A DNA stretch of 56,428 nt, from the NCBI GenBank assembly GCA_017415325.1, contig JAFQGY010000246.1:1-56428 (forward strand), written 5' to 3'. This stretch comes from Clostridia bacterium. Its GTDB lineage: Bacteria > Bacillota > Clostridia > Oscillospirales > CAG-272. Below are positions 5,038 through 30,075 of the stretch, piece by piece (within the stretch, counting starts at the first letter, position 1; the number at the start of each line of letters is the position of its first letter). The notes beneath the pieces are model-generated. The model was not told the origin of the DNA. It searched no databases and worked only from the letters and a program-made list of their open reading frames with translations. The position numbers and the translations under genes are program-made.

Positions 5038-5069
5038 ACAGTCTCCTTACCTTTTTTCATTTCGTTTTT

Positions 5070-15328: not shown

Positions 15329-16278
15329 ATCGTCCAGTCCTTTCCTTCAGCGGCAACGGTCAGCGCCGCAATATCTCCGATGTTTTCATCCAGTTTGGCA
15401 GGCACCACTTCCACCGCATCGTATGCCAGTGGCAGGCATTCCCGCCGCAGCACCGTCTGCATTTTTTCTGCCAGCAGCGCACTGTCCCGCATATAGATGG
15501 AGCCCAGTACGATCCGCTCCGGGTTCAGCACGTCCACCAGAATGGACAGCCCGGCTCCCAGCTTTTCCGCACAGATGTCGTATACCAGCACCGCATCTTC
15601 GTTTCCTTCTCTGGCGGCAATGGCAACGGATTTGGCGGTGATTTCGTTCATTTTTTCCATGGATTCACAGAAGGAACAGGTCTTCCCCTGCTGGAACAGT
15701 TCCAGCGCAACGTTTTTCCCGATCTGTGCAATGCCGCTTCCGCTGCAGAACCCTTCAAAGGAACCGGATTTGCCGTATCCCACAGGGCCGTATGGCGCCA
15801 TCCGCACATGCCCAATTTCTCCGGCCATATCGGAAGTACCGCTGTACAGACGCCCGTTCAGCACCAGACCGGCCCCCATGCCCGTTCCAAAGGTCAGGAA
15901 AATCATATTCCGGGTACCCACACCGGCACCGTATTTCCATTCCGCCAGCGCACAGGCATTGGCATCGTTGCACAGATATGCAGGGACTCCGGTGGCTTCC
16001 CGCAGCAGTCGGTTGATTTCGATATGATCCCATCCGGGCAGATTCGGAGGAGACAGTATCACGCCTTTTCCGGAATCCAGCGGGCCGCCGCAGCTGACGC
16101 CGATGGACTCCACAGGTTCCGGACTGGCCTGACAAAGCCCTACAGCCGTTTCAATGATCTGGTTCAGGGTGGTGTCCACGTCTTTTGTTTCAAACTTCAC
16201 CTTCCGCACGATGGTTCCGTCCTTTTTACCCAGCACCAGCGCACACTTGGTTCCGCCTATGTCTATCCCTAAGTACAT
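15325..16278 (-). CDS. ROK family sugar kinase
   Basis: N-terminal GIDIGGTK motif, the LCNDANACALAEW motif and GHVRM..G..G..C..C-type ROK signatures. Confidence 0.85.
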   Translation of the reverse strand: MYLGIDIGGTKCALVLGKKDGTIVRKVKFETKDVDTTLNQIIETAVGLCQASPEPVESIGVSCGGPLDSGKGVILSPPNLPGWDHIEINRLLREATGVPAYLCNDANACALAEWKYGAGVGTRNMIFLTFGTGMGAGLVLNGRLYSGTSDMAGEIGHVRMAPYGPVGYGKSGSFEGFCSGSGIAQIGKNVALELFQQGKTCSFCESMEKMNEITAKSVAIAAREGNEDAVLVYDICAEKLGAGLSILVDVLNPERIVLGSIYMRDSALLAEKMQTVLRRECLPLAYDAVEVVPAKLDENIGDIAALTVAAEGKDWTI

Positions 16279-16355
16279 AAGTACCTCCGCGATTCTTTTT
16301 TCTTTATTTTACCATACTTCCGGTATATTACAAGCCTTTCTTTGTAAATTTCCAT

Positions 16356-16379
16356 AAAAAAACCGCTCTCTCCTGCGGT
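16356..16379 (-). terminator. intrinsic terminator after the DUF1540 gene
   Basis: On the minus strand, an ACCGC/GCGGU stem is followed by U7. Confidence 0.5.
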
Positions 16380-16413
16380 CGGCAGAAAAAAGCGGTCTTT
16401 TGGGGTATTTCGT

Positions 16414-16614
16414 TTATCTGGTTTCGCCGCAGCAGGACGCGCTGCCCAGCACAAAGGATTCACAGTCCACACACTGTACCACAGTAGGGTTCTTTTCGTG
16501 GGTACCGATGACTACCTTTTCCAGAGAGCAGTAGTTTTCGCTCTGGGCATGGTGGGCGCAGTTCTTGACAGAGCAGGAAATGCAGTGGTTGGGTTTCTTG
16601 GTTTCCATGGACAC
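16414..16614 (-). CDS. DUF1540 domain protein (small Cys-rich, sporulation-associated family)
   Basis: The two repeated C..V..C motifs (CSVKNCAHH / VQCVDCESF) are typical of DUF1540. Confidence 0.75.
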   Translation of the reverse strand: MSMETKKPNHCISCSVKNCAHHAQSENYCSLEKVVIGTHEKNPTVVQCVDCESFVLGSASCCGETR

Positions 16615-16692
16615 TTACCTCGGTTTCTTGATGTGAAATCCGCTTTGGGATTCCCGGGGTTATTGTGTCCCGTCTGGACCCGGTTTATTCAC

Positions 16693-17736
16693 TCAGTTTC
16701 CGGAAGAAGCCGGTATAGGCTGCCAGGGTTCCTCATAAGCAAGAAACGGAATCATCTCCCATTCCCAGGATTCCACCCGACCGCCGGTACACAGAAGCTT
16801 CACCCGGAACACGCCGGTTTCCATTTCCGGGAAACGTGTATCCCCTGAAAGAAAACTGCCCAGAGACGGTACGATCACACCGTCAGCGTAGGATACAGGT
16901 TCATACAAAGTTGTAGAGTGTGTGGCCAGCACCATATCCGCACCAGATTCGATCATGGAACAGTACGCCGCAAACACTTCCGGACTGTCCGGTTCCATAC
17001 CCATATGTCCGTGGGGATAGATGACCACCAGATCACAGGAAGCCGATGCATTGCCGATCCAGCCGAGAATCCGGGGCAGATCCGTTTCCGCATCTTCCAG
17101 CCGGCAGGGATACACACCGATCCGGATGTCATGTTTTTCCAGATATACCGCTTTTTCGTCATCTCCCCACAACAGACCGGCGTCTTCCAGAGCGGTTTTG
17201 GTATCCGCATATCCTTCCGCACCGTAGTCCTTTGTATGATCCGTGGCAAGCGATACAATATCAATACTACCTTCCGCAAGCACCTGTGCACCGGCAGCGG
17301 GAGCCAGATACCAGGCACGTTCGTCGTCATTCTTTTCAGCAGGGCGATACTCCCCGTCGCTGAGCACACTGCCAAGAGCGCACACCGTCCAGTCATCTTC
17401 CGCCAGTACAGAGGACGCTCCCTTCAGAAAATAGGCAGGTCCTTCCATCTCCAGCTGTTCATTGAAGGTACCGTACGCACCGGACCCCAGCATGGAACCC
17501 ACAATACAGTTGCCCACAAAACCCATGGTCAGCACCTGTCTGGAATCGGCAGGCTCATCGATCATGGAAATTCTGCCGTCCGGGTCTGTCCGGGACATGG
17601 ACGCACTGCTGTCCAGAACCGGGATATAATTGGCACCGCTGAATACTGCACTGTGCAGAATCAGTCCGCCCGTCAGAAGTGCCAGCGCCGCACTGCAGAG
17701 AATCCGCTTGCAGAGTATGGAATCCTTTAAGGTCAC
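16693..17736 (-). CDS. CapA/PGA_cap family metallophosphatase-like exported protein
   Basis: N-terminal signal/anchor, DIVSLATDHTKDYG and VIYPHGHMG motifs, and the CapA-like layout. Confidence 0.7.
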   Translation of the reverse strand: MTLKDSILCKRILCSAALALLTGGLILHSAVFSGANYIPVLDSSASMSRTDPDGRISMIDEPADSRQVLTMGFVGNCIVGSMLGSGAYGTFNEQLEMEGPAYFLKGASSVLAEDDWTVCALGSVLSDGEYRPAEKNDDERAWYLAPAAGAQVLAEGSIDIVSLATDHTKDYGAEGYADTKTALEDAGLLWGDDEKAVYLEKHDIRIGVYPCRLEDAETDLPRILGWIGNASASCDLVVIYPHGHMGMEPDSPEVFAAYCSMIESGADMVLATHSTTLYEPVSYADGVIVPSLGSFLSGDTRFPEMETGVFRVKLLCTGGRVESWEWEMIPFLAYEEPWQPIPASSGN

Positions 17737-17842
17737 AACACGTCCTCCCTTTCTGAAAAAACCACAGTATACCTATGATATTGCCTTATAGTATACCATA
17801 ATTCTCCAGGAATTGCAAGAGGAAGAATGGGGTCATTTCCCG

Positions 17843-18388
17843 TCAGTCTGTCCTTTTCCTCTGAATTTTTCCGATTTCGTCCGGAATTGCTGAAAAATCC
17901 GCCACAAGAGAATGGGGTTTTCCGGACGGATCGTCCATGGACATGGGGGCGAAATACACGTTTTTCCGGCTGCGCAGAATCCCGATGTTTGACAGATTGG
18001 CGGACAGAGCATCGTTTGTGGCAAGGGCTATGAGCAGGGGACGGTCGGAGCGGAGATGGGCTTTGGCGGCCATGGTGACGGCGGTGTCCGTGATCCCGTG
18101 GGCCATTTTGGCCAGTGTATTGCCGGTACAGGGGGCAATCACCAGAAGATCCAGTGCTTCTGCCGGGCCAAGGGGTTCCGCTTCGGCAATGGTGCGGATG
18201 GGCTCTCTACCGCACAGGGCCCGCAGGATCTCCAGCAGATCTGCCGCTTTGCCGAAACGGGTATCCGTGGAGGCGGCAGTTTCGCTGAGGATGGGAACGA
18301 TGGTATGCTCTTCTGCCAGTTTTTCCAGAACGGCAATACTTCTGGCATGGGTGCAGAAGGAGCCGCACAGGGCATATCCGATTTTCAT
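17843..18388 (-). CDS. dpaB: dipicolinate synthase subunit B
   Basis: MKIGYALCGSFCT...IAPCTGNTLAKMA is a flavoprotein-like SpoVFB signature. The start overlaps the dpaA stop. Confidence 0.85.
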   Translation of the reverse strand: MKIGYALCGSFCTHARSIAVLEKLAEEHTIVPILSETAASTDTRFGKAADLLEILRALCGREPIRTIAEAEPLGPAEALDLLVIAPCTGNTLAKMAHGITDTAVTMAAKAHLRSDRPLLIALATNDALSANLSNIGILRSRKNVYFAPMSMDDPSGKPHSLVADFSAIPDEIGKIQRKRTD

Positions 18389-19299
18389 GATTCTTCCCTC
18401 CGTTTCAGAGTGCTTTCCGGTTCCGTATTCTGCCACAGGGCAATCTTTTCCAGTATCCCGTCACAGAGAATCCGTCCGGCGGTATGGGGAGCGGTCTTTC
18501 CCGGCAGTCCCGGAGCACGGATCAGTCGGATGTGCGGCGGGATTTCCATGGCAGGCGGCAGACCGTGTGCCATCTCCACAAACACACAATTCTCCGGCAG
18601 GTTTTCCAGACAGGACGCCGTGAACACCGGAGCGGGAATGGTGTTGAACAGAATCCGGCAGGGCAGCGGATCCGCAAGAAATGCATCCAGAAGGACGGTT
18701 TCGCATCCGTCACAGGCTGCTTCCGCCAGAGCCGACTGCCGTCTTGCCGCCACAATCACCCTTGCGCCCAGCAGATGCAGCCGGTTTGCCAGTGCTCTGG
18801 CACATCTGCCGTATCCGGTGACAACGGCTGTGGTTTCCGGCAGGATCACTGGCAGTTCCCGGATGGCAATGGCAAGGGCACCTTCTGCGGTGGGTACGGC
18901 ATTGAGAGTCTGCACCGTATCGTCGGCATAATAGTCGAGAAACCGGACTGCATTTTCTTCCGCCATCCGGAGTACCACAGGCGGAATGATCCCTCCCAGC
19001 AGCAGACTTCCGGGACGCAGAAAACGGCACAGGGCTTCCAGCGGGACCGTCTGGTTGGCGTGGGGATCGGCCGAAAGGGTTTCTCCGTCTCTGGTGACGG
19101 GAATGGGCAGGATCCCCACCTGGGCGCCGGACATGGCCTCCTGCCAGGTTTTGGTACCGTGGGCATACGATGGAATCTGTACATCCGTGGTGCCCCAGAC
19201 CGACAAAGTACTGTCCGGCAGAGCACGGTGGAGCCCATGGAGTATGGTTTCTGTCCGCCTGTCTCCGCCCAGTATCGCAATTTTGTGTATGGTTCGCAT
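18385..19299 (-). CDS. dpaA: dipicolinate synthase subunit A
   Basis: The VVTGYGRCARALANRLHLLGARV Rossmann motif and the overall layout fit SpoVFA. AGGGGGA RBS. Confidence 0.85.
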   Translation of the reverse strand: MRTIHKIAILGGDRRTETILHGLHRALPDSTLSVWGTTDVQIPSYAHGTKTWQEAMSGAQVGILPIPVTRDGETLSADPHANQTVPLEALCRFLRPGSLLLGGIIPPVVLRMAEENAVRFLDYYADDTVQTLNAVPTAEGALAIAIRELPVILPETTAVVTGYGRCARALANRLHLLGARVIVAARRQSALAEAACDGCETVLLDAFLADPLPCRILFNTIPAPVFTASCLENLPENCVFVEMAHGLPPAMEIPPHIRLIRAPGLPGKTAPHTAGRILCDGILEKIALWQNTEPESTLKRREES

Positions 19300-19311
19300 A
19301 AATCCCCCTGT

Positions 19312-19448
19312 GAAAAATAAGAGATAAGATGTCAGAAATTAAAAGTACAGCGGCATCCTCTGCTGTTTCAGTATATGCAGAACAGCACCGGCAGGGATAC
19401 GGTTTTCCCGAGGCAGTAAAATATTCTGCATTTTTTCAGAAATTTTTC
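19312..19448. repeat. second ~137-bp copy of the AT-rich palindromic element (good left arm, degenerate right arm), lying in the dpaA 5' region just upstream of the padR promoter
   Basis: 19312-19347 (GAAAAATAAGAGATAAGATGTCAGAAATTAAAAGTA) matches 12479-12514 at about 31 of 35 positions. It is followed by a CAGCGG..CTGCTG hairpin. The degenerate right arm ATATTCTGCATTTTTTCAGAAATTTTTCC (about 19418-19448) resembles the plus-strand form of the 8511-8547 copy. Confidence 0.55.
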
Positions 19449-19457
19449 CATACCCCC

Positions 19458-19515
19458 TTGACAAATATATCGGCTTCCGTTATACTATAGATACGATATA
19501 TCGGCATCCGTTATA
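19458..19515 (+). promoter_or_regulatory. padR promoter with two 20-bp direct-repeat candidate operators
   Basis: TTGACA (19458-19463) - 17 nt - TATACT (19481-19486). ATATATCGGCTTCCGTTATA (19465-19484) and ATATATCGGCATCCGTTATA (19496-19515) are 31 bp apart. Each has inverted half-sites ATATCGG / CCGTTAT. Confidence 0.55.
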
Positions 19516-19537
19516 ACGGTTCACGAAAGAGGTATAT

Positions 19538-19870
19538 ATGGCAAATCAGGCATTGACGGAAGCGGTGTATTACATCCTGCTTTCTCTCACAGACCCTCTC
19601 CACGGGTACGGCATCATGCAGAATGTGGAAAAACTCTCCGGCGGCAGAGTGCGGCTGGCAGCGGGAACCCTGTACGGGGCACTCAATACCCTGCTGGAAA
19701 AAGGATGGATCACGGCGCTGCCCGGAGAAAAAGATACCCGGAAAAAAGAATATCAGATTACAGCGGAAGGACGAATGGCACTGCTGGATGAGATTGCCAG
19801 ACTGACGGAACTGCTGGAAAACGGAAAGAAACTATTCGGAGGAAAAAGCAATGCGGAAGACAGTTTATAA
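19538..19870 (+). CDS. PadR family transcriptional regulator
   Basis: The YYILLSL...HGYGIMQ...GTLYGALNTLLEKGWI winged-helix signature fits PadR. Confidence 0.85.
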   Translation: MANQALTEAVYYILLSLTDPLHGYGIMQNVEKLSGGRVRLAAGTLYGALNTLLEKGWITALPGEKDTRKKEYQITAEGRMALLDEIARLTELLENGKKLFGGKSNAEDSL

Positions 19871-20393
19871 ATGGTTCTGGGCATGGGAATTCGACAAGGA
19901 AGAAAAATGGCTGAACGAAATGGCGGCAAAGGGACTGACCCTGTCTTCCATGCATTTCAACAAATACATTTTTGAAGAAACGGAACCGGGGGAATATCAG
20001 GTGCGGATCGAGCTGCTGGACAATGCGCCCACCCATGCGGAAAGCGAATCCTATATCCGCTTTGTGGAGGAAACCGGCGCGGAACAGGTGGCATCCTGGA
20101 TCAACTGGGTGTACTTCCGGAAGAAGACCGCCGACGGGCCTTTTGAGCTGTTCTCGGACAATACCTCCCGGATCAAGATGCTGAACCGGGTGATTTCCCT
20201 GCTGACCACCCTTGGAGTTCTGTGCCTGATCGCCGGGGGATACAATCTGTTCCTGTATTTCCTGTGGGGTCACGCCGTCAGCCTGGTCGGACTGCTTCCC
20301 CTTGCCGTTTCGGTACTTCTGGGTCTGGGTATGCGGCGGCTGCAGAAGAAGAAAAAGCTGCTGCAGAAGGAAGAACAGGTATTTGATGCCTGA
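19851..20393 (+). CDS. DUF2812 membrane protein (typical PadR partner)
   Basis: The WEFDKEEKWLNEMAAKG N-terminus and two C-terminal TM helices fit the family. It overlaps padR by 20 nt. Confidence 0.75.
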   Translation: MRKTVYKWFWAWEFDKEEKWLNEMAAKGLTLSSMHFNKYIFEETEPGEYQVRIELLDNAPTHAESESYIRFVEETGAEQVASWINWVYFRKKTADGPFELFSDNTSRIKMLNRVISLLTTLGVLCLIAGGYNLFLYFLWGHAVSLVGLLPLAVSVLLGLGMRRLQKKKKLLQKEEQVFDA

Positions 20394-20400
20394 GACAAAC

Positions 20401-20460
20401 ACAAAAAGAACCGGCGTCATCCCGCATGTACAGGGGAGATTCCGGTTCCTTTGTTTTGTT
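20401..20460. terminator. bidirectional terminator between convergent genes
   Basis: AAAGAACCGG (20405-20414) pairs with CCGGTTCCTTT (20442-20452). A- and T-rich flanks. Confidence 0.6.
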
Positions 20461-20465
20461 CGGCT

Positions 20466-21614
20466 TTAATACAGGTAATACGATCTGGTCATATTCTGCC
20501 ACACGGCGACCTTTTCGGCTTCCCTTGCGATAAACCGTTCCGCATCGAAATCCGCCTGCAGAATGTCGTCCGTACCCAGCAGATTGGCGATGGACGGCCG
20601 CATGACAGTTTCTTCCGGATGGTTTTTCAGTATGGCGCAGAAAATCCGCAGTCCGGTGGCAAAGGGGCGGTAGGCATCCCGGTCATGGATATGCAGCTGC
20701 ACACCATGGCAGAGCTGTCCCGCATGCTTGGAGAAGGTGGGGGTGAAATACGCTTCCCTGAGATACACACCGGGCTGTTCACCGACGGCATCCAGCAGGG
20801 CCCGGACATCCACCCAGGGCGCTCCCAGAATCTCAAAAGGCTTGGTGGTTCCCCGCCCTTCGGAAAGGTTGGTGCCCTCGATGATGCAGGTGCCGATATA
20901 GCTGTAGGCCGTATCGACTGTGGGCAGATTGGGGCTGGGCTGGACAAAGAGCAGGTCGGTGTCGTCAAAGTCCATGGCCCGCTGCCAGCCTTCACAGGGG
21001 ATCACATGAAGGTCACAGCCGATTTTCTCTGTTTCATTGATACAGAGGGCAAATTCCCCTACCGTCAGACCGGAACGGGTTGCTGTGGGATACCGGCCCA
21101 CAAAGGTGGAGAACCGTCTGTCCAGTATGGTGCCTTCCACCCGGGTTCCGCCGATGGGATTGGGTCTGTCCAGCACTACAAAGCGTACCCCGGCAGCGGC
21201 ACAGCGGATCATGGCGTCGGTCATGGTATACTGGTAGGTATAGAACCGGGCGCCGATGTCCTGGATGTCAAAAAAGATGGTATCCAGAGAAGTCATGACC
21301 TTTTCCGCATCTGCCAGTCCTTTGCCATAAAAGCTGTACACCGGAAGACCTGTGGATGTGTCGATATAGAAAGATTCCACTTCTCCCCCGGCCTGTGCAT
21401 CGCCCCGGACACCGTGCTCCGGTCCGAACATCGCCTGCAGATCACACACCTGCACCAGCATATCCACTGTGGAAGTCATGTTTTTCAGCACACCCGTAGG
21501 ATTTGTAATCAGCCCGCATCTGCCGGGATCCTGTACACCTGCCCGCCGGAGAGCCGCCATACCGTCCCGTGCCAATATGTCTGCACCGCAGTATACTACA
21601 GCTTTGTTCTTCAT
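20466..21614 (-). CDS. namZ: DUF1343 / NamZ-family exo-beta-N-acetylmuramidase
   Basis: FGPEHG..G and DIQDIGARFYTY motifs and the LDRPNP motif are typical of DUF1343 (B. subtilis YbbC/NamZ). ATGA overlap with the upstream gene. Start set at MKNK (21614). Confidence 0.8.
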   Translation of the reverse strand: MKNKAVVYCGADILARDGMAALRRAGVQDPGRCGLITNPTGVLKNMTSTVDMLVQVCDLQAMFGPEHGVRGDAQAGGEVESFYIDTSTGLPVYSFYGKGLADAEKVMTSLDTIFFDIQDIGARFYTYQYTMTDAMIRCAAAGVRFVVLDRPNPIGGTRVEGTILDRRFSTFVGRYPTATRSGLTVGEFALCINETEKIGCDLHVIPCEGWQRAMDFDDTDLLFVQPSPNLPTVDTAYSYIGTCIIEGTNLSEGRGTTKPFEILGAPWVDVRALLDAVGEQPGVYLREAYFTPTFSKHAGQLCHGVQLHIHDRDAYRPFATGLRIFCAILKNHPEETVMRPSIANLLGTDDILQADFDAERFIAREAEKVAVWQNMTRSYYLY

Positions 21615-22696
21615 CGGATATCCCCCGCTGCCAGATGGCGTTCGTATTCTGTGGTCATCAGATTGTAGAACTTCCGCCGGATGGGATAGGAAGCGTCCCG
21701 GTTGTTCCGGCCGTAGTGCACGGAGTTGGTCAGCAGGATTCCCCACAGACCGGTTTCGCTGTCCACATACAGACTGGTGCCGGTGAATCCGGTATGGCCG
21801 TAGCTGCCCTGGGACATCAGATCTCCCATAGGCGACCACTGGGTTCCCATCAGCTGAAAGCCCAGTCCCCGGGATTCATCCAGTGTGGGCGTAAAGTTGT
21901 GCACCGCCAGATCGAACACACGGCGGGTCAGGAACAGTTCGCCGTTCTTTGTTTTCCCCCGCTCTGCACACATCCCGGCAAAAGCGATCATGTCATCCAG
22001 TGTGGAGAACACCCCCGCATTGCCGGAGACACCGCCCAGATAGTGTGCGTTTTCGTCATGCACATGCCCGGTGGTCCATTCATGCCAGTGGGGACTGAAC
22101 TCTGTGGCGGCAAAATCATTGTCCTGCGCCGGTTTGTATCCGGTATGCTTCATCCCCAGCGGATCGAACACCAGCCGCTTTGCCAGTGTGTCCAGCCCTT
22201 CCCCGGCGATGTTTTCCAGAATCCTCTGGAGGGTGATGTATCCCATGCAGGAGTAGTACACCTCTTCCCCAATTTTGCAGACAGGTTCGGAGTTCAGGAT
22301 GGTTTCGATGGGATCCGCCGCAGTGCCGTCCTCCTTCGGACAGAGGGTATACAGGGGCAGATGGGGGGAGATCCCGGCGGTATGGGTCATGAGATGGCGG
22401 ATCTGCACACCCCGGAAGTTGCCCGAGGAAGGCAGGTACATCCCGATGGTGTCTCTGAGACAGAGCTTTCCGTCTTCCAGGAATTGCAGTGCCACCATGG
22501 TGGTGGACACCAGCTTGGACAGGGACGCCAGGTCAAAGAGCGTGTTTTCCGTCAGGGGCAGTTCCGTGGGTTCGATCTGCCGTCTGCCGAGAAACTCCCG
22601 GAGATACACATCGTACCCGCGCCCCACAGCCACCGCCGCACAGGGGTAGCCCACATCACTCCCGCCCGCAAGACAGGCCAAGGTTTTTTCAACCAT
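21611..22696 (-). CDS. serine hydrolase of the beta-lactamase/transpeptidase fold (AmiE-like candidate MurNAc-L-Ala amidase)
   Basis: SLSK (SxxK) motif, YSC (YxN-like) motif and a GHTGFTG (KTG-like) motif. Its position in a murQ/namZ cluster parallels B. subtilis amiE. Confidence 0.75.
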   Translation of the reverse strand: MVEKTLACLAGGSDVGYPCAAVAVGRGYDVYLREFLGRRQIEPTELPLTENTLFDLASLSKLVSTTMVALQFLEDGKLCLRDTIGMYLPSSGNFRGVQIRHLMTHTAGISPHLPLYTLCPKEDGTAADPIETILNSEPVCKIGEEVYYSCMGYITLQRILENIAGEGLDTLAKRLVFDPLGMKHTGYKPAQDNDFAATEFSPHWHEWTTGHVHDENAHYLGGVSGNAGVFSTLDDMIAFAGMCAERGKTKNGELFLTRRVFDLAVHNFTPTLDESRGLGFQLMGTQWSPMGDLMSQGSYGHTGFTGTSLYVDSETGLWGILLTNSVHYGRNNRDASYPIRRKFYNLMTTEYERHLAAGDIR

Positions 22697-22702
22697 AGAT
22701 CA

Positions 22703-23314
22703 TCACTCCGTTATTTGTTTTCTTCTGCGGACTGCCGATTCCACCCACCATACGATCCATGCCAGAAGCACAGCCCCGGAAGGCGGAACCGTCAGGATCC
22801 CTACAAACAGTGCGCCCAGTGTATCCCATCCGCTGAAGAGATCGAAAAAATCAAAATATACATATACCGTAAATAACAATTCCAGCAGGCAGATGTATAC
22901 GGGAATACACCGGACAACGGTATTTTTTACATTCCGGCAGAGAAGATACTGCACAATCCCATGTACAAACGGCATGAGAATCACGAACCCATAGGCAGCC
23001 AGTTCTTCATGGAGCTTTGGTTCGTTCTGTACCAAAAATCCGCAGAGCAGTCCCAGTCCCGCCAGAATGAAAAACAAACCGGTTCCCTGCAGGATACGCT
23101 TTCCTGCCCGGCGCTGTACCGGTATCTCCGGCAGCCACACCCCCAGCAGTAGGTGGATGTAGCCTATCAGGATTCCGGCAAATTTTCCTATCTGAAAGAC
23201 TACTTCTCCCTTCCATCGAAGTACAGGATACGTCGGCAAAACCACAAGGGCGGCGGCTGCCAGTATCGTACCGGCCAGCAGAACAAAGTCTTTCCACAAC
23301 AGTTTTTTTCGCAT
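22703..23314 (-). CDS. small polytopic membrane protein of unknown function
   Basis: About 6 hydrophobic helices. GGAGGG RBS in front of the ATG at 23314. Confidence 0.6.
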   Translation of the reverse strand: MRKKLLWKDFVLLAGTILAAAALVVLPTYPVLRWKGEVVFQIGKFAGILIGYIHLLLGVWLPEIPVQRRAGKRILQGTGLFFILAGLGLLCGFLVQNEPKLHEELAAYGFVILMPFVHGIVQYLLCRNVKNTVVRCIPVYICLLELLFTVYVYFDFFDLFSGWDTLGALFVGILTVPPSGAVLLAWIVWWVESAVRRRKQITE

Positions 23315-23363
23315 AAAACCCTCCTGTCTCATAAACAGCGGGGTCATTTTCCTGTGCTGTCGC

Positions 23364-24254
23364 TTATTTCCGGTTTTCCCTGCAGTACGCCCAGGCACCC
23401 ATCACCGGGTCAAAGGGTTCCATACACAGCACCGATGCCGGCAGATGTTCCCGTTCCGTCAGCGCTTCTCTGTACGCACGCCGAAACCAGGACAGATTCC
23501 CGATGCATCCGCCGCTGGTGTGGATCTCTTCCGTTGTAAAGCCCATGCGTCTGTATAGAACGGCCGTCCATCCGGCAAGGGCATGGGCTTCTGCGAGCAG
23601 CACCGATTTTGCGTATCCGTTTCCTGCACGGGCCAGTGTATCGGCAACCCCCGCCAGTCTGGCAATATCGGATTTCGGATGGCTGTAGACATAGGCCACC
23701 ATTTCCCGCCAGTCGGATACGCCAAGGGCTTCGTATACGGCATGTTCCAGCTCCGGTACATGGGTGCGGGTGTCGATGCATTCGGTCAGCACCGTCAGCA
23801 GTCTGTAGCCGATGTTTGCACCGCTGCCGTGTTCGCCCAGAAGATGTCCCCAGCCGCCGCAGCGTTCCAGCACACCGTTTTTCTTCCCCTGGATCACGGA
23901 ACCGGTGCCGGAGATCACCAGCAGACCATCCTTTTCCCCCAGTGCGCCGTAAATGGCCAGGGGGCCGTCGGAAGTCACATATGCCGGAATCCCGAAATGA
24001 TTTTCCAGACTCCGCATCAGTTTTTCCGCATAGTCAGCAGATCCTGCTCCCGCTGCTCCTACCACAATGGCTTCCGGCAGTGTTTCCGGCATACATCCGG
24101 CAATGGCGTCGGTGATATTTTTCTCCGCTTCCGCAAAGTCCAGCGTCAGGTTCCCGCATCCGGTAATCTTTTCCCGCAGGATGGTGTTTTCTTCATCCAG
24201 CAGTACCGCCCGGGTTTTGGTTCCGCCCGCATCCACAGAAAGGATTGTTTTCAT
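23364..24254 (-). CDS. BadF/BadG/BcrA/BcrD-type sugar kinase (MurNAc/GlcNAc kinase MurK-like)
   Basis: The LSVDAGGTKTR and ISGTGS ATPase motifs are present. It starts 7 nt after the murQ stop, with a GAGGTG RBS overlapping that stop. Confidence 0.75.
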   Translation of the reverse strand: MKTILSVDAGGTKTRAVLLDEENTILREKITGCGNLTLDFAEAEKNITDAIAGCMPETLPEAIVVGAAGAGSADYAEKLMRSLENHFGIPAYVTSDGPLAIYGALGEKDGLLVISGTGSVIQGKKNGVLERCGGWGHLLGEHGSGANIGYRLLTVLTECIDTRTHVPELEHAVYEALGVSDWREMVAYVYSHPKSDIARLAGVADTLARAGNGYAKSVLLAEAHALAGWTAVLYRRMGFTTEEIHTSGGCIGNLSWFRRAYREALTEREHLPASVLCMEPFDPVMGAWAYCRENRK

Positions 24255-24261
24255 ACACACC

Positions 24262-25092
24262 TCACTGCAGCAGGGAGAGAATTGCCTTTTTGGCACTGCC
24301 TCCTGCTTCCGTCAGAGCCGCCTGCGCCGTTTCTGCGTCCACGTCCGCCGCTTCCATCACAATCCGCAGAGCACGGGCACGCAGCTTGTCGTTGGTTGCC
24401 TGTACATCCACCATCAGATTGCCCATGACCTTGCCGCAGCGGATAAACGCACCGGTGGACAGCATATTCAGCACCATTTTCTGGGCAGTCCCCGCCTTCA
24501 TACGGGTGGATCCGGTGACCACTTCCGGGCCGGTGACCACTTCCACGGGAATATCCGCCAGGGCAGAAATTTCCGCCGGACTGGTACAGGCGACAGATCC
24601 GGTTACGGCACCGATGGAACGGGCATAGGCAAGACCGCCCTTTACATAGGGAGTCCGTCCCGATGCGGCAACCCCCACAAGGAAGTCATCCTTGCAGAAG
24701 TTTATAGCCCGCAGTTCTTCCTCCGCCAGCGTCAGGGAATCCTCTGCCCCTTCCACAGCGGAAAACATGGCGCCCATCCCCCCGGCGATCAGACCCACGA
24801 TGGTGTTATCATCCACGCCATAGGTGGGACGGCATTCGGCGGCGTCGATAACCCCCAGTCTCCCGGAGGTACCGGCACCGATGTAGATCAGTCTGCCGCC
24901 GTGCTGCAGAGCATATGCAGCCGCTTCAATCTGTTTTGCAATCTGTCCCGATGCTTTTTCCACCGCATCCGCCACCGTTTTGTCTTCGGCGTTGATGATG
25001 CGGACAATCTCCTCGGGAGAGGCGGTATCAATATGGGCCGACCGGGGATTTCTCCCTTCGGTAGCCAGTTTTTTCAGTTCGTTCAGTTCCAT
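24262..25092 (-). CDS. murQ: N-acetylmuramic acid 6-phosphate etherase
   Basis: LATEGRNPRS..IDT at the N-terminus, plus the SIS motifs GAGTSGRLG and ASGRTPY. Confidence 0.9.
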   Translation of the reverse strand: MELNELKKLATEGRNPRSAHIDTASPEEIVRIINAEDKTVADAVEKASGQIAKQIEAAAYALQHGGRLIYIGAGTSGRLGVIDAAECRPTYGVDDNTIVGLIAGGMGAMFSAVEGAEDSLTLAEEELRAINFCKDDFLVGVAASGRTPYVKGGLAYARSIGAVTGSVACTSPAEISALADIPVEVVTGPEVVTGSTRMKAGTAQKMVLNMLSTGAFIRCGKVMGNLMVDVQATNDKLRARALRIVMEAADVDAETAQAALTEAGGSAKKAILSLLQ

Positions 25093-25095
25093 GAC

Positions 25096-26865
25096 TCAAC
25101 CCAGATCCGGCGTATCCAGAGAGGTTACCACGCCGTTTTCCGCTCCGTCGCATTCCAGTACGATCACTTCGTTTTCCCCGGCCTTCAGCACCGTGGCAGG
25201 ACAGTACATGGTCTTCTGGGGGCCTGCATCGTTGTAGTACCGGCCCAGATGGAAGCCGTTCACCCATACGCAGCCGTGATGATACCCGTCCAGACGGATA
25301 AAGGTGTCCGCAGGTTCGTCCACAGTCATACTGCCCTTCAGCAGTACGGAACCTGTAAAGGTAGCATCCGCCCCATCGGCATAGGGCAGGCCTGTCAGGT
25401 TGTTGGGTTCGTCAAACTGGGGCATGGTGAGAGGGGTGATTTCCCAGCCGAAGTGATACTGCTGGCCGAAACGGATCCCTACAGCACCCTTGCGGTCCCG
25501 CATTCTGGGGCCGTAGTTCACTCTGCCCATGTTTTCTACCAGAATATCCACTTTGACAGATTCACCCACACCCAGGTTCAGCACGATATCCGGATTCCGG
25601 CGGTCTCTTTCAAAGATGCCCTTCAGCTGGCCGTCGAAGTATACACAGGCTCTGTCGTGGAGTACGTCAAAAATCAGCTTTGTTCCGGAAATGGGGCCTT
25701 TCACGATGGTGGAATACAGAGTGAATCCGAAGTTCTGGCCCAGGTCTTCCTGATACACGGGAGCCGGCAGCTTCACGGACTTGCCAAGCAGAGAAGCCAC
25801 TTCCAGCACCGGTACGGACTTATCGAATTTGATTTCGCCATAGCCTTTCTTGGGAGATTCGCTGGCGGTCAGCACGGTTTCCACACCGGTGAAGTCCCGG
25901 ATGGCATCCCGGACTGCATAATAAGCAGGGGTACGGTCGCCGGCTTCGGACAGAATGGCGTTGTAGTCGTAGCTGGTGATGGTGGGCTGGTATACATCGG
26001 TGTGGTTTGCGCCGTTCATCCAGCCGAAGTTGGTGCCGCCGTGGAACATATAATAGTTGCAGGACGCACCGTCTTCCAACATTTCCTTAAAAGGATTCAC
26101 CATATCGTCCACAGCCCGTACATGGTGTTCTTCGTACCAGTGGTCGAACCAGCCGCACCAGTATTCACCGCACATACAGGGCTCGTAGGGACGATAGAAT
26201 TTCAGGGTCTTGAAGTTGCCTCTGGGATTGGAGCCGAAGTTGGCCACAGACAGATACTGGGGCAGAGTCCCGCCGTTCAGCATCCAGTCGCAGGCACCGT
26301 CGGAGGTAAACAGGCAGCAGTCCACGCCCAGATCCCGGTAGATGTCGGCCACAGCCTGCATATAGTCATGGTCGTTGCCGTAGCTGCCGTATTCGTTTTC
26401 GATCTGCACCATCTGGATCGGCCCGCCCTTGGTAGACAGCAGAGGCCCGATCTGGTCAAACAGGGCTTCGTAATACCGGCGCACCTTGCCCAGATATTCC
26501 GGATCGTTGCAGCGGATGGGCATCTTGTCGTACTTCAGCAGCCATGCCGGCAGTCCGCCGAATTCCCACTCGGAACAGATATACGGCCCGGGACGCACGA
26601 TTACATTCAGTCCCAGTTCCCCTGCCAGACGGATGTAGGCCGCGATGTCCAGCATACCGGTGAAGTTGAACACGCCTTCTTCCCGTTCGTGCAGGTTCCA
26701 GCAGGTATAGGTTTCCAGGGTATTGAAACCGCATTCCTTCAGCTTGGTCAGTCTGTCCCGCCAGTATTCCCGGGGAATCCGGAAGTAGTGCATGGCACCG
26801 GACAGAATGGTATAGGGTTTGCCGTCCATGAGGAAGTTTTTCTTGTCGTAAGATATGATAGCCAT
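25096..26865 (-). CDS. glycoside hydrolase family 35 (beta-galactosidase-type)
   Basis: GAMHYFRIP..W.DRL.K.K..GFNT.ETY..WNLHE, QIENEYG and CGEYW motifs. Its stop is 3 nt upstream of the murQ ATG. Start set at MAIISY (26865). Confidence 0.85.
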   Translation of the reverse strand: MAIISYDKKNFLMDGKPYTILSGAMHYFRIPREYWRDRLTKLKECGFNTLETYTCWNLHEREEGVFNFTGMLDIAAYIRLAGELGLNVIVRPGPYICSEWEFGGLPAWLLKYDKMPIRCNDPEYLGKVRRYYEALFDQIGPLLSTKGGPIQMVQIENEYGSYGNDHDYMQAVADIYRDLGVDCCLFTSDGACDWMLNGGTLPQYLSVANFGSNPRGNFKTLKFYRPYEPCMCGEYWCGWFDHWYEEHHVRAVDDMVNPFKEMLEDGASCNYYMFHGGTNFGWMNGANHTDVYQPTITSYDYNAILSEAGDRTPAYYAVRDAIRDFTGVETVLTASESPKKGYGEIKFDKSVPVLEVASLLGKSVKLPAPVYQEDLGQNFGFTLYSTIVKGPISGTKLIFDVLHDRACVYFDGQLKGIFERDRRNPDIVLNLGVGESVKVDILVENMGRVNYGPRMRDRKGAVGIRFGQQYHFGWEITPLTMPQFDEPNNLTGLPYADGADATFTGSVLLKGSMTVDEPADTFIRLDGYHHGCVWVNGFHLGRYYNDAGPQKTMYCPATVLKAGENEVIVLECDGAENGVVTSLDTPDLG

Positions 26866-26918
26866 ATGGTTTCTCCTGTCGGTTGATTTTGATTTTGGAT
26901 AGAAATCACTCTGGTAAG

Positions 26919-27046: not shown

Positions 27047-27075
27047 TTGACAAGTCCACAAAATTTTGGTATACT
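27047..27075 (+). promoter_or_regulatory. sigma-A promoter driving the T-box leader
   Basis: TTGACA (27047-27052) - 17 nt - TATACT (27070-27075). Confidence 0.65.
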
Positions 27076-27081
27076 CTCTCT

Positions 27082-27367
27082 ATCCAAATCGTAAATGCGA
27101 TTACGGGGAAACGGAACGGATAACATACCGTACAGAGAGCTGCCGGTGGGTGCAAGGCAGAGTGGCATACATCCGGTTCCTCTGGTCCCCCAGCAGCAGA
27201 TCTGAACGCAGGCTTCTGCCAGTAAAATCTGACGGGTTCCCACCGTTACATGGGAAAGGCATCGTGTTGTGCCTGTTAAGTGGGTATTTTACTGCCAATC
27301 AGAGTGGTACCACGGGAGCATTCAGCCCTCGTCTCTGTCGGTTTTCCGATGGGGATGAGGTTTTTTT
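27082..27367 (+). promoter_or_regulatory. T-box riboswitch leader (tRNA-sensing transcription attenuator)
   Basis: Stem I distal signatures: AGAGAG (27134-27139), then a CUGCC/GGCAG stem closing a GGUGGGUGCAA loop. T-box sequence AAUCAGAGUGGUACCACGGGAG at 27297-27318. Terminator CCUCGUC..GAUGAGG plus U7 at 27327-27367. Confidence 0.8.
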
Positions 27368-27486
27368 ATGCCATACAGACTTGTCAACAGCGGAATGATG
27401 CAGGCAACACAATCCATACTGTGGAGGGCGGACAGCTGCCGTTCTCCCCGGGCAATCATTCTATTTTTATGCAGAGGTAATCAGTT

Positions 27487-30021
27487 ATGAAACTTTCCTT
27501 CTCCACACTCGGCTGTCCTGATTTTTCCTGGACCGATATTTACACCATGGCCAAGGACTTCGGGTTCCACGGCATCGAAATGCGGGGGCTCGGCAACGAT
27601 ATTTTCTCCGTATACGCTTCCCCCTTCCAGCCGGAAAATCTGCCGGAAACCAAAGCTACCCTCAAACGGCTGAAGCTGGAAATCTGCTGCCTTTCTTCCG
27701 GCTGTGCCCTCCGGTTTGCCGACCGTCATGAAGAAACCATCGCCGAACTGAAGGAATATATCCGTCTGGCAAAGGAACTGGGTACCCCTTACATCCGTGT
27801 GCTGGGGGATCTGACCGCCGAAATCACCACCGATTTCCCGGACGAAAATGTAATCGAACCCATGAAGATTCTGGCTCCCATTGCGGAAGAAGCCGGCGTC
27901 ATGCTGCTGATCGAAACCAACGGTGTATACTCCGATACCGCAAGACTGGCGGATGTACTGGCCCAGATCGGTTCCGATGCCGTAGGCGCTCTGTGGGACT
28001 GGAACCATCCCTATCGCTTTGCAGGGGAAATGCCCGAAAAGACCATCAACAACCTGGGTGCCTACATCAAGCACTGTCACATCAAGGACTCCGTTATGGA
28101 AAACGGCAAGGTTGTCTACAAGCTGGTAGGGGAAGGGGATCTGCCTCCCATGGCCGAATACCTCAAGGCACTCCGCTCCCTCAATTATGAAGGATATATC
28201 TCTCTGGAATGGCTCAAGCAGTATGCGCCGGAACTGTCTGACGCCGGGATCGTATTCCCCCATTACGCCAACTTCATGTCCCACTATCTGGGACTGGACA
28301 AGGGCAGCGAAAGACTCCAGAAGAACAAGCGGGGCGACGGGTACTATGTATGGGAAAAGGATCAGCTCATCGACATGACCTTCCCGCAGGTGCTGGACCG
28401 GATGTGCGAAGAGTTCCCGGATCAGTACGCTTTCCGTTACACCGAATTTGATTACACCAGAACCTATCCCGAATTCCGTGACGATGTGGACACCTTTGCC
28501 CGGGCGCTGATTTCCATGGGCGTAAAGCAGGGTGACCATGTAGCCATCTGGGCCACCAACGTTCCCGCATGGTTCATCACCTTCTGGGCATCCGTCAAGA
28601 TCGGTGCGGTACTCGTTACCGTAAACACCGCCTACAAGATCCACGAAGCCGAATACCTGCTCCGCCAGTCCGACACCCACACCCTGGTCATGATCGACGG
28701 CTACAAGGATTCCGACTATGTTGGCATCATCAGGCAGCTGGTTCCCGAACTGGAACAGAACGACGAAGTCAAGCCCATCCACAGCCGCAAGCTTCCCTTC
28801 CTCCGGAACGTGATTACCGTAGACTCCAAGCAGAAGGGCTGCTGGACCTGGGACGAAGCCATGGCGCAGGCGGAAAAGACCCCCATCGAAGCCGTATACC
28901 GCAGAGCTGCCATGATCAACAAGCATGACGTGTGCAATATGCAGTACACCTCCGGCACCCCCGGTTTCCCCAAGGGCGTTATGCTGACCCATTATAATAT
29001 TGTAAACGACGGGAAGTCCATCGGCGACCGTATGGATCTGTCCACCGCAGACCGGATGATGATTCAGGTTCCCATGTTCCACTGCTTCGGCATGGTACTG
29101 GCTATGACCGCTTCCATGACCCATGGTGTGACCATGTCCCCCATCTCCGCCTTCTCCCCCAGAAAGGGCCTTTACTGCATCAACAAGGAAAAAATCACCT
29201 GCTTCCACGGTGTTCCCACCATGTTCATCGCAATGCTGGGACATGAAGACTTCGCCAAGACCGATTTCTCCCATATGCGTACCGGGATCATGGCCGGTTC
29301 TCCCTGTCCGGTAAAAGTCATGGAAGAAGTGGTGGAAAAGATGAACATGAAGGAAATCACCATCGTATACGGTCAGACCGAAGCGGCGCCCGGATGCACC
29401 CAGAGTTCTACCGATGACACCATCGAAACCCGTGTGAACACTGTGGGCCGTGCGTTCTATGGTGTGGAATGCAAGATCGTGGATCCCGAAACCGGCGAAG
29501 ATCTGCCTGACAACGTAGACGGCGAATTTGTTGCCCGTGGGTACAACATCATGAAGGGCTACTACAAAATGCCCGAAGCCACTGCCGCTGCCATCGACAA
29601 GGACGGCTGGCTCCACACCGGCGACCTGGCAAGACGGCTGCCCGACGGCAACTACAAGATCACCGGCCGGATCAAGGATATGATTATCCGCGGCGGCGAA
29701 AACATCTACCCCAAGGAAATTGAAGACTTCCTCTACACCCATCCGGATGTCAAGGACGTACAGGTCATCGGCGTGCCCGACAAGCAGTACGGCGAAGAAA
29801 TCATGGCCTGTGTCATCCGCAGAGAAGGTTCCGAGGTCACCGGAGACGAACTGAAGAAGTATGTCATGGATCACATGGCCAAGCACAAGGTTCCCCGGTA
29901 TGTGTCTTTCGTGGATGCGTTCCCGATGAATGCCGCCGGGAAGATCCTGAAGTACAAGATGCGGGAAGACGCCAAGAATCTGCCCGAATTCAAGGAAGCC
30001 GCCGGAATCGTAACCGCATAA
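27487..30021 (+). CDS. fusion protein: N-terminal xylose-isomerase-like TIM barrel (AP_endonuc_2) joined to a C-terminal AMP-forming acyl-CoA synthetase
   Basis: The first ~275 aa have the LGCPDFSW..HGIEMR..ELGTPYIRV..LLIETN..HIKD..ISLEW pattern. The C-terminal ~545 aa carry YTSGTPGFPKG, YGQTE, GWLHTGD, GRIKDMIIRGGENIYP and AAGKILK adenylate-forming motifs. GAGG RBS. Confidence 0.85.
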   Translation: MKLSFSTLGCPDFSWTDIYTMAKDFGFHGIEMRGLGNDIFSVYASPFQPENLPETKATLKRLKLEICCLSSGCALRFADRHEETIAELKEYIRLAKELGTPYIRVLGDLTAEITTDFPDENVIEPMKILAPIAEEAGVMLLIETNGVYSDTARLADVLAQIGSDAVGALWDWNHPYRFAGEMPEKTINNLGAYIKHCHIKDSVMENGKVVYKLVGEGDLPPMAEYLKALRSLNYEGYISLEWLKQYAPELSDAGIVFPHYANFMSHYLGLDKGSERLQKNKRGDGYYVWEKDQLIDMTFPQVLDRMCEEFPDQYAFRYTEFDYTRTYPEFRDDVDTFARALISMGVKQGDHVAIWATNVPAWFITFWASVKIGAVLVTVNTAYKIHEAEYLLRQSDTHTLVMIDGYKDSDYVGIIRQLVPELEQNDEVKPIHSRKLPFLRNVITVDSKQKGCWTWDEAMAQAEKTPIEAVYRRAAMINKHDVCNMQYTSGTPGFPKGVMLTHYNIVNDGKSIGDRMDLSTADRMMIQVPMFHCFGMVLAMTASMTHGVTMSPISAFSPRKGLYCINKEKITCFHGVPTMFIAMLGHEDFAKTDFSHMRTGIMAGSPCPVKVMEEVVEKMNMKEITIVYGQTEAAPGCTQSSTDDTIETRVNTVGRAFYGVECKIVDPETGEDLPDNVDGEFVARGYNIMKGYYKMPEATAAAIDKDGWLHTGDLARRLPDGNYKITGRIKDMIIRGGENIYPKEIEDFLYTHPDVKDVQVIGVPDKQYGEEIMACVIRREGSEVTGDELKKYVMDHMAKHKVPRYVSFVDAFPMNAAGKILKYKMREDAKNLPEFKEAAGIVTA

Positions 30022-30032
30022 GCAGAAAACCA

Positions 30033-30075
30033 ATACAAAGACAGTGGGAACCTACCTGCTGTCTTTTGTATTTTA
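30033..30075 (+). terminator. intrinsic terminator after the fusion gene
   Basis: 12-bp stem, ATACAAAGACAG (30033-30044) with CTGTCTTTTGTAT (30059-30071), followed by a T run. Confidence 0.7.

Follow-up and report, generated by a model that had tools for sequence, protein, structure and literature searches.

Predicted leucine-specific T-box leader upstream of a TIM-barrel–acyl-CoA ligase fusion gene in Clostridia

Overall organization of the T-box locus

A 56,428-nucleotide stretch of DNA from a Clostridia bacterium (contig JAFQGY010000246.1 of assembly GCA_017415325.1), referred to here as the window, contains a predicted T-box leader and, downstream of it, a single gene that encodes a fusion protein of 844 residues (aa). 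The leader is preceded by a promoter and ends in an intrinsic terminator. The gene product combines a triosephosphate isomerase (TIM) barrel with an acyl-coenzyme A (CoA) ligase of the ANL type, and a further terminator closes the monocistronic unit. The coordinates of these features, together with those of related features in other loci (denoted L001, L002 and so on), are compiled in Table 1.

The covariance model of the T-box family RF00230 matches window positions 27091–27339 over its full length (model positions 1–219) with a score of 88.0 bits and an E-value of 8.9e-20 in a scan of the region and 8.4e-18 in a scan of the whole window. RF00230 is the sole Rfam family with an E-value below 0.01 in the whole window. 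E-value reporting was used for this permissive scan, and the curated gathering cut-off of RF00230 is 93 bits. An RF00230 search had been recommended in a preliminary description of the locus, and its outcome is divided: the match is significant and full length, but the score lies below the curated cut-off (88 versus 93). The absence of a significant match, which had been named as refuting the T-box, is therefore not what was observed. The 5-bit shortfall is attributable to specific structural departures of the window leader, among them those in the kink-turn (K-turn) and S-turn, which are described below. Homologous leaders score above the cut-off, with 117 bits for L076, 107.2 for L108, 95.0 for L092 and 94.9 for L006.

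Most of the architecture proposed in the preliminary description is recovered. The identification of the leader as a T-box is upheld by the full-length family match, by covariation and by the presence of an antiterminator/terminator pair. The proposed TTGACA-17-TATACT promoter shows 11 of 12 matches in a pattern scan and carries a TG-extended −10 element, and the TGn extension is kept at equal distance in an alignment of orthologous leaders. The distal signatures of Stem I (AGAGAG at 27134–27139 and CUGCC/GGCAG around GGUGGGUGCAA at 27140–27160), the T-box sequence AAUCAGAGUGGUACCACGGGAG at 27297–27318 with its UGGU at 27305–27308, and the terminator at 27327–27367 are likewise found where they had been placed. 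The Pfam domains of the gene product and the terminator at 30037–30066 also bear out the claim that the fusion is the only open reading frame (ORF) before the next terminator.

Table 1. Features of the T-box unit in the window and of related loci. Positions refer to the window unless a locus is named.
Feature	Position	Strand	Details
Sigma-70-type promoter	27047..27075	+	−35 TTGACA 27047–27052, 17-nt spacer, TG-extended −10 TATACT 27070–27075; 11/12 matches (pattern scan)
T-box Stem I	27096..27195	+	Rfam alignment; covariance model R1, 79.4 bits
Stem I basal helices	27096–27098/27193–27195 and 27105–27108/27186–27189	+	Rfam alignment
Degenerate K-turn position	27099..27104	+	5′ strand GAUUAC, partner 27190–27192 CCA; no tandem G·A
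AG bulge AGAGA	27134–27138	+	In Stem I; Rfam alignment
Stem I distal helix	27140–27144/27156–27160	+	CUGCC/GGCAG closing loop GGUGGGUGCAA, span 27140–27160
Predicted Specifier CUG (Leu) and purine G27185	27182..27185 (codon 27182–27184)	+	Rfam alignment and 40-leader comparison
Stem II	27197–27231	+	GAA 27204–27206, AGUA 27221–27224; Rfam alignment, posteriors mostly '*'
Stem IIA/B element	to 27248	+	CGG 27233–27235/CCG 27243–27245, then UUA; putative pseudoknot, sequence elements only
Extra hairpin AGGCA/UGCCU	27257..27274	+	Lies after Stem IIA/B and before Stem III; inserted with respect to the Rfam model
Conserved T-box sequence AAUCAGAGUGGUACCACGGGAG	27297–27318	+	UGGU at 27305–27308
Antiterminator	27301..27336	+	A1 AGAG 27301–27304/CUCU 27333–27336; A2 ACGGG 27312–27316/CUCGU 27328–27332
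Antiterminator bulge UGGUACC (7 nt)	27305–27311	+	UGGU would pair with tRNA 3′ ACCA
Intrinsic terminator	27327..27367	+	15-bp stem 27327–27360, UUUU loop, U7 27361–27367
Regulated gene, 844 aa	27487..30021	+	Ribosome-binding site AGAGG 27473–27477; TIM barrel and ANL acyl-CoA ligase fusion (Pfam)
Terminator ending the monocistronic unit	30037..30066	+	Pattern scan
LeuA-like gene, examples	L078:2580–4004; L076:2513–3979		
T-boxes of Ile/Val ligase loci, examples	L092:2193–2436, 4792–5032; L108:2203–2440, 4903–5141		
Oxidoreductase region	L109/L110:4970–7242; L096:4796–6792; L146, L148–L155		Downstream of ligase

Stem I and the Specifier

Orthologous loci were collected from one genome per GTDB species, which yielded 80 loci with fusion proteins that are 63–96% identical. 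In 40 of the 80 species-representative genomes, a leader profile detects a homologous T-box immediately in front of the fusion gene, and the Stem I covariance model (R1) was built from 40 leaders. In the model-based alignment, column-wise comparison is feasible for three Stem I helices, whose cells are paired at 98%, 93% and 99.5%. Changes that compensate each other on both sides are observed in 16 of their 18 base pairs. The distal helix (99.5% paired) displays compensatory changes in four of its five pairs, and the helix next to the Specifier (93% paired) displays them in all four. The covariation score of Stem I is 0.425, compared with 0.218 for shuffled alignments (none of 500 reaches 0.425) and 0.10–0.23 for slid controls. 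The middle helices of Stem I are only 33–67% paired by column in the MAFFT and model-based alignments because helix lengths vary, and nothing is claimed for them. The canonical Stem I fold of the window is feasible at −18.6 kcal/mol. Single-sequence minimum free energy (MFE) folds of Stem I from the 40 leaders are noisy and often non-canonical and were given no weight either way.

A single nucleotide separates the Specifier from the downstream 3′ strand of the lower Stem I helix, and the register of the codon is fixed by this covarying helix. At the Specifier column, the leaders contain CUC (34/40) or CUG (6/40); the C and U are invariant, the preceding bases are free to vary, and a purine follows in 34 of the 40 leaders. 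This usage matches that of Leu Specifiers in TBDB (CUC 0.77, CUG 0.07). CUG is carried by the window leader, by L001, L002, L013 and L016, and independently by L052. On the comparison of leaders, the Specifier of the window is accordingly predicted to be CUG, a leucine codon. Shifted registers were also considered and rejected: UCU/ACU or UGG/UCA would specify different amino acids across the orthologs, and only CUS (Leu) is consistent.

Three candidate codons had been put forward in the preliminary description. The preferred one, CUG at 27182–27184, is the codon selected by the Rfam alignment and by the presence of CU[C/G] in 40 of 40 orthologous leaders. The other two are not retained, since UAC at 27168–27170 sits in a non-conserved upper internal loop and CUG at 27202–27204 lies within the 5′ strand of Stem II. 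The comparison of orthologous leaders that had been suggested for this purpose revealed both covarying Stem I helices and a conserved Leu Specifier. An 'unusually large internal loop' (CAGCAGCAGAUCUGAA, 27191–27206) dissolves in the alignment into the 3′ base of Stem I, a 2-nucleotide linker and the 5′ strand of Stem II with its GAA, whereas the remark that no K-turn is obvious proves correct, as NGA of the K-turn GA motif is present in 35 of the 40 leaders and is lost in the window subclade.

Lower Stem I, Stem II and an extra hairpin

The five leaders that lack the NGA are those of the window, L001, L002, L013 and L016. In this subclade, a conserved GGAA/UUCC pairing (27113–27116 with 27177–27180 in the window) stands in place of the S-turn and leaves a compact Specifier loop (AAAC / U-CUG-G). 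Other orthologs, L045, L036 and L039 among them, have the canonical GAA-CUC-R arrangement. In the window subclade, a CUG Specifier in place of CUC accompanies the loss of both the K-turn and the S-turn.

Stem II and the Stem IIA/B elements (27197..27248) are conserved across the orthologs in the MAFFT alignment. Between Stem IIA/B and Stem III, the extra hairpin recurs in orthologs with changed base pairs (GGACAU..GUGUCC and GAGCAU..GUGCUU) upon inspection of the alignment.

Expression platform and predicted switching mechanism

The antiterminator has the layout AGAG-UGGUACC-ACGGG ... CUCGUCUCU and reaches −11.4 kcal/mol when folded alone. At least eight of its nine pairs are formed in 38 of 38 leaders, with the compensatory variants GGAG/CUCC, UGAG/CUCA and AGGG/CCCU. 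The bulge reads UGGUACC in 38 of the 40 leaders, and its fourth base is U in all of them, as expected for a tRNA with A73. A73 is a textbook identity element of tRNA-Leu, and its predicted pairing with UGGU would be consistent with this tRNA. The first bulge base, the partner of tRNA A76, is G or C in L003 (~3880–3890), L023 (~3895–3905) and L077 (2469–2480), where the bulge reads GGGUACC or CGGUACC.

The terminator folds with an energy of −24.9 kcal/mol (z = −6.8), and none of 200 shuffled sequences folds equally well. Its 5′ arm (27327–27341) contains the 3′ arm of the antiterminator, and the two structures are mutually exclusive because residues 27328–27336 are used by both. Based on this folding, termination is the predicted default state of the leader.

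The mechanism of tRNA docking and antitermination is established for T-boxes, and the window leader would operate along the same lines. Stem I would dock tRNA-Leu by pairing of the CUG Specifier with the anticodon CAG and by stacking of the AG bulge and distal loop on the tRNA elbow. The free 3′ ACCA of an uncharged tRNA would pair with UGGU and stabilize the weak antiterminator, which would block the terminator and let the polymerase read into the gene. Charged tRNA-Leu would be unable to stabilize the antiterminator, and transcription would stop at U7.

Structure and distribution of the fusion protein

The fusion protein is composed of three Pfam domains: a xylose-isomerase-like TIM barrel (PF01261, residues 22–244, 107 bits), an AMP-binding domain of the ANL ligase type (PF00501, residues 304–693, 299 bits) and AMP-binding_C (PF13193, residues 744–819, 68.6 bits). 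The best NCBIfam match of the whole protein is PRK12583, 'fatty acid CoA ligase family', with 678 bits against a cut-off of 832; the branched-chain acid ligase family MbcS (NF047394) is not among the best 25 of the 114 NCBIfam families matched. The fusion architecture is present in more than 120 protein clusters with 76–99% identity from Oscillospiraceae, Ruminococcaceae and other Clostridia metagenome-assembled genomes (MAGs).

In the TIM domain, the metal tetrad consists of E143, D171, H198 and E241. E143, D171 and E241 are invariant, and H198, which is part of an HxKD motif, is found in 20 of 23 sequences. An AlphaFold2 model (mean predicted local distance difference test score 84, predicted template-modelling score 0.83) contains a confident barrel that Foldseek relates to PF01261-family members with a probability of 1.0. 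Its neighbours in fold space, Art22, AsbF, YcjR and psicose epimerases, are generic matches (TM-score ~0.67, 15–22% identity). A homolog search with the TIM domain alone retrieved only fragments of the same fusion family, and the searches of solved structures and folds for a substrate returned generic matches only.

Most of the ortholog loci stem from gut MAGs of ruminants (goat, deer and buffalo), rabbits, horses and chickens. In addition to the 40 loci with a T-box directly upstream of the fusion, L076 and L077 contain a T-box ~1.5 kb upstream, ahead of an intervening LeuA-like gene; the L077 leader scores poorly (50 bits) and has no unambiguous Specifier. L033 retains a leader remnant (3769–3835) that comprises the 3′ part only (26 bits, nhmmer) and may be a decayed T-box. 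Two T-box–fusion units, each with a protein 96% identical to that of the window, are located on different contigs of SVSN01 (isolate SIG670; L013 and L016), which may reflect duplication into paralogs or a bin composed of more than one strain. L068 (JAMPEF010000001.1), a 702-kb record titled Alistipes senegalensis (Bacteroidota), encodes a fusion that clusters, along with its neighbours, with those of Ruminococcus (L069–L071, L075) and is probably mislabelled or mis-binned.

Paralogous ligases downstream of Ile and Val T-boxes

L006 contains a second T-box in front of a ligase in which an HTH_3 domain, Cupin_2 and an AMP-binding domain are fused (helix-turn-helix (HTH)-cupin-ligase), and the Rfam alignment gives AUC (Ile) as its Specifier. 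This Ile unit (T-box 19–261, ligase 283–2637) is situated directly upstream of the Leu-T-box/TIM-ligase unit. A set of 80 metagenomic relatives of the HTH-cupin-ligase (L081–L160) contains 48 Stem I matches. An AUC (Ile) T-box is located directly upstream of the HTH-cupin-ligase in ~31 loci. A second T-box, with GUA, GUC or GUG (Val), comes immediately after this ligase and precedes a tandem second copy of it in ~10 loci, and three loci with a single HTH-cupin-ligase also contain GUA. The Rfam model confirms all registers, with 107 bits for Leu, 95, 92 and 78 bits for Ile, and 95 and 81 bits for Val.

The top NCBIfam match of the Ile/Val-controlled ligase domain is MbcS, whose cut-off of 850 bits is not reached (454 bits). 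Genes for a 2-oxoacid:ferredoxin oxidoreductase, with an alpha subunit (POR_N and PFOR_II) and a beta subunit (TPP_enzyme_C), lie downstream of the HTH-cupin-ligase in at least 15 loci, and L096, L109 and L110 are T-box operons that include the oxidoreductase. A small ParA/CbiA-like P-loop gene often precedes the oxidoreductase genes, and Amidohydro_2 recurs upstream. An aminotransferase is seen only beside the Leu fusion (L078, L080).

Gene neighbourhood and a LeuA-like gene

The neighbourhood of the fusion gene is mostly not conserved, and the largest cluster of neighbouring proteins has nine members. The only recurring neighbours are a LeuA-like gene, an aminotransferase, Amidohydro_2 and a ParA-like gene. 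The LeuA-like gene (~475 aa; HMGL-like and LeuA_dimer domains) lies just upstream of the fusion, in some cases overlapping it, in six loci (L056, L076–L080). A class-IV aminotransferase of the branched-chain type follows the fusion in L078 and L080, both of which are devoid of a T-box; in these two loci, the fusion is also flanked by the Amidohydro_2 and ParA-like families that recur with the Ile/Val systems. The order divergent Leu-CUC T-box, LeuA-like gene (44% identical, E ~1e-130) and TIM-domain ORF is found on the minus strand of L108 and L116, two distant loci from metagenomes.

The matches of the LeuA-like protein to 2-isopropylmalate synthase fall well below the cut-offs. In the LeuA family, RDGEQ and HxHND hold the catalytic metal, and LeuA_dimer is the allosteric leucine-binding domain. 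All eight members examined lack RDGEQ and HxHND and keep the LeuA_dimer domain. From its sequence, the LeuA-like protein is probably a pseudoenzyme, and it may be speculated that it serves as a leucine sensor or partner of the Leu enzyme.

In the window, the T-box unit is bordered upstream by divergently oriented genes for a GH35 beta-galactosidase, a MurQ-like SIS protein and a BadF/G-type kinase, and downstream, past the terminator at 30037–30066, by a solute-binding-protein-like ORF and a D-Ala-D-Ala carboxypeptidase gene. The upstream genes belong to a glycan/peptidoglycan-recycling cluster on the minus strand (15325–26868) that includes a ROK kinase, a PGA_cap-like protein, a NamZ exo-muramidase (20466–21839), the BadF/G-type kinase (23364–24296), the MurQ-like SIS protein (24262–25092) and the GH35 enzyme (25096–26868). 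This cluster is unrelated to the T-box unit, which appears to be an insertion beside it. No branched-chain amino-acid genes were detected in the window by tblastn.

An 850-aa ORF on the minus strand (27481–30033) shadows the 844-aa fusion and is the clearest example of long antisense ORFs in the window; another, on the plus strand (24067–26886), lies opposite GH35. Such antisense shadow ORFs are typical of DNA with 54% GC and constitute a pitfall for gene calling by length. Many of 20 further window ORFs searched with Pfam are without a match and are probably wrong-strand shadow ORFs.

Proposed function and alternative explanations

The region 27047–27367 is best explained, with good confidence, as a promoter and a tRNA-Leu-specific transcriptional T-box that gate the downstream fusion gene for leucine supply. 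The parts of this reading differ in strength. The leader is very likely to be a functional, Leu-specific T-box as predicted, and the regulated enzyme probably serves leucine supply. The assignment of isovalerate as the substrate and of reductive carboxylation as the route, both suggested by regulation and context, is tentative. Independently of the T-box, a link to branched-chain amino acids is indicated by the LeuA-type gene (six loci) and the class-IV aminotransferase (L078, L080) that adjoin the fusion. When charging of tRNA-Leu is low, the ligase domain would activate isovalerate, or a close leucine-precursor acid, to its CoA thioester. A 2-oxoacid:ferredoxin oxidoreductase would then carboxylate the acyl-CoA reductively, and the resulting 2-oxoisocaproate would be transaminated to leucine.

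The Leu unit may be one arm of a tRNA-sensing regulon of Clostridia from the rumen and the gut of herbivores, an extension that is conceivable and put forward with reserve, in which Leu, Ile and Val T-boxes each control a dedicated ligase for branched-chain volatile fatty acids, with the LeuA paralog as a leucine sensor. The Leu T-box would govern the TIM-ligase fusion for isovalerate, and the Ile and Val T-boxes would govern the MbcS-like HTH-cupin-ligases for 2-methylbutyrate and isobutyrate, in conjunction with the oxidoreductase and an aminotransferase. A shortfall in the charging of one tRNA would thereby elicit synthesis of the same amino acid from its cognate acid.

Several observations weigh against the Leu-T-box and leucine-supply reading, some at the leader and others at the enzyme. 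A scan of the whole window at the Rfam gathering threshold is empty; because the leader scores 88 bits, 5 below the threshold of 93, this is not evidence of absence. No tRNA genes are present in the window, and those found among 60 related loci are restricted to Pro and Gln genes in L006. No T-box is detected in 37 of the 80 orthologs by nhmmer or the Stem I covariance model, and Rfam finds neither a T-box nor another riboswitch in the six of these 37 that were scanned with it. In the window, Stem I contains GAUUAC/CCA instead of the K-turn (NUGAN/NGA) and AAACGGAA/GGUUCCU instead of the Specifier-loop S-turn (AGUA/GAA), and its unconstrained MFE fold is non-canonical. The K-turn is a common T-box feature that is not required for family membership. 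Both motifs are normally important for T-box function, and the activity of the window leader is not guaranteed because they have been lost. It is conceivable that the T-box of the window subclade is decaying or altered and no longer senses tRNA, either attenuating transcription constitutively or being bypassed. The restriction of K-turn GA loss to this subclade, the score below the Rfam cut-off and the alternative Stem I fold, in which the AG bulge (CAGAG) pairs with the Specifier region (CUCUG), would fit such decay. However, although the leaders in the five species genomes of the subclade carry substitutions at other positions, each still has an intact promoter, Specifier, AG bulge, distal loop, Stem II, UGGUACC bulge, antiterminator and terminator, and the GGAA/UUCC pairing that replaces the S-turn looks like remodelling, not decay; loss of sensing is thus improbable. 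A Specifier for an amino acid other than leucine, with tRNA-Tyr read through UAC at 27168–27170 or another tRNA through a shifted register, is very improbable indeed. A purine does follow the UAC, A73 is shared by tRNA-Tyr, and the Rfam posterior probabilities near the window Specifier are only moderate, but the UAC lies in a loop that is not conserved and has no counterpart in the orthologs, and the register is set by the covarying helix.

At the enzyme, tblastn detects no oxidoreductase, aminotransferase or LeuA-like gene in the window. The ligase domain of the fusion has no characterised close relative, its best PDB relatives being acyl- and feruloyl-CoA synthetases, and it belongs to a different clade from MbcS, with ~25% identity to the MbcS-like paralogs. 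Because the TIM metal site is intact and its reaction unassignable, the ligase substrate may not be free isovalerate. The TIM barrel could first convert another leucine-related precursor by isomerisation, epimerisation or dehydration into an acid that the ligase then activates, in the manner of AsbF/AsbC, and the product could feed an undescribed route to 2-oxoisocaproate with the LeuA-like protein. The strict conservation of the fusion in more than 120 clusters, the intact E143-D171-H198-E241 tetrad and the finding that the closest neighbours by sequence and fold include AsbF and the isomerase Art22 speak for such a conversion, as do the different clade and partners of the Leu ligase relative to the Ile/Val ligases, including the fact that no oxidoreductase is seen beside the Leu fusion. 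It is nevertheless considered unlikely, given that no positive evidence points to any specific other substrate, that the fold neighbours are generic (TM-score ~0.67) and that the parallel with the Ile/Val ligases favours activation of the cognate acid. Slightly less likely again is a role in lipid synthesis, in which isovaleryl-CoA made by the ligase would prime the formation of iso-branched fatty acids and scarce leucine would be spared from catabolism by an MbcS-like logic. Staphylococcus aureus MbcS activates branched short acids for FabH priming (PMC10026030), and in L063, L064 and L066 a T-box-less fusion gene follows FakA-like and PlsX genes. Against this role, known T-box regulons raise the pool of charged tRNA through synthetases, biosynthesis or uptake, the recurring partners (aminotransferase, LeuA-type protein and, for the Ile/Val paralogs, oxidoreductase) include none for fatty-acid synthesis, and the combination of AMP-forming activation with a subsequent oxidoreductase is in keeping with carboxylation to a 2-oxoacid.

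Comparison with known systems

Fibre-degrading Firmicutes of the rumen and gut need isovalerate, 2-methylbutyrate and isobutyrate, which are also livestock supplements, and the pathway from branched acids to amino acids has been known physiologically since the 1960s. In the literature searched, the activating enzymes and their regulation in rumen and gut bacteria are unassigned, and a gut-microbiome reconstruction of amino-acid pathways does not include the carboxylation route for branched acids. The loci described here provide concrete candidate genes for these activating enzymes and a testable regulatory model, of which the window represents the leucine arm. The Specifier can be regarded as an evolutionary label of the amino acid served, marking the fusion as leucine-related and its paralogs as isoleucine- or valine-related. 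If the proposal is true, it would supply gene identities and a regulatory logic for the assimilation of branched-chain acids and would extend T-box regulons to the salvage of carboxylic acids.

T-boxes are usually catalogued on aminoacyl-tRNA synthetases, canonical biosynthetic operons and transporters. The T-box sensing mechanism is the known part of the present system, and the ligase target class and the inferred three-class regulon are the new part. The surveys of Wels et al. 2008 and Sun et al. 2013 list no CoA ligase or AMP-binding target, and no report of T-box control of acyl-CoA ligases was found in the literature searched, with prior mention in other T-box surveys being possible.

Rumen microbes carboxylate isovalerate to leucine and 2-methylbutyrate to isoleucine (PMC7356843, PMC2812497). 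The proposed route follows the same logic of acid, acyl-CoA, 2-oxoacid and amino acid. The gut habitat of the contigs matches, and a ligase is clustered with an oxidoreductase in the Ile/Val loci and with an aminotransferase in L078 and L080. The literature searched provides the physiology of this pathway and ties neither specific ligase genes nor tRNA sensing to it, whereas genes and their regulation are proposed here.

S. aureus MbcS selectively activates 2-methylbutyrate (cognate to Ile) and isobutyrate (cognate to Val) and is poor on isovalerate (PMC10026030). MbcS resembles the present ligases in that it is AMP-forming and activates exogenous branched short-chain acids, and it is the top family match of the Ile/Val paralogs. 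The window ligase differs in belonging to another clade and in being fused to a TIM barrel, and MbcS feeds fatty-acid priming. T-box control of MbcS is not mentioned in the abstract of PMC10026030 or in the other literature searched.

In petrobactin synthesis, AsbF makes 3,4-dihydroxybenzoate for the adenylating enzyme AsbC. This pair (AsbF structure, PDB 3dx5) likewise couples a xylose-isomerase-like TIM enzyme to an adenylate-forming enzyme. AsbF is remote from the TIM domain of the fusion (E = 3e-4, 21% identity), and the two Asb enzymes are separate proteins of siderophore synthesis, unconnected with leucine.

The closest regulatory counterparts are the Leu T-boxes of leuS, leuA and ilv-leu operons, which have the same architecture, the same UGGU/A73 match and the same transcriptional control as the window leader; leuA of Geobacter, for example, has a CUC T-box (PMC2700814). 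The window leader differs from these in its target, an acyl-CoA ligase fusion and not a synthetase, canonical biosynthetic gene or transporter. It also differs in its minority CUG Specifier (7% in TBDB), in the lack of a K-turn and S-turn and in the extra hairpin before Stem III. By keeping every tRNA-contacting element yet replacing the K-turn and S-turn, the window leader offers a natural test of the necessity of these motifs.

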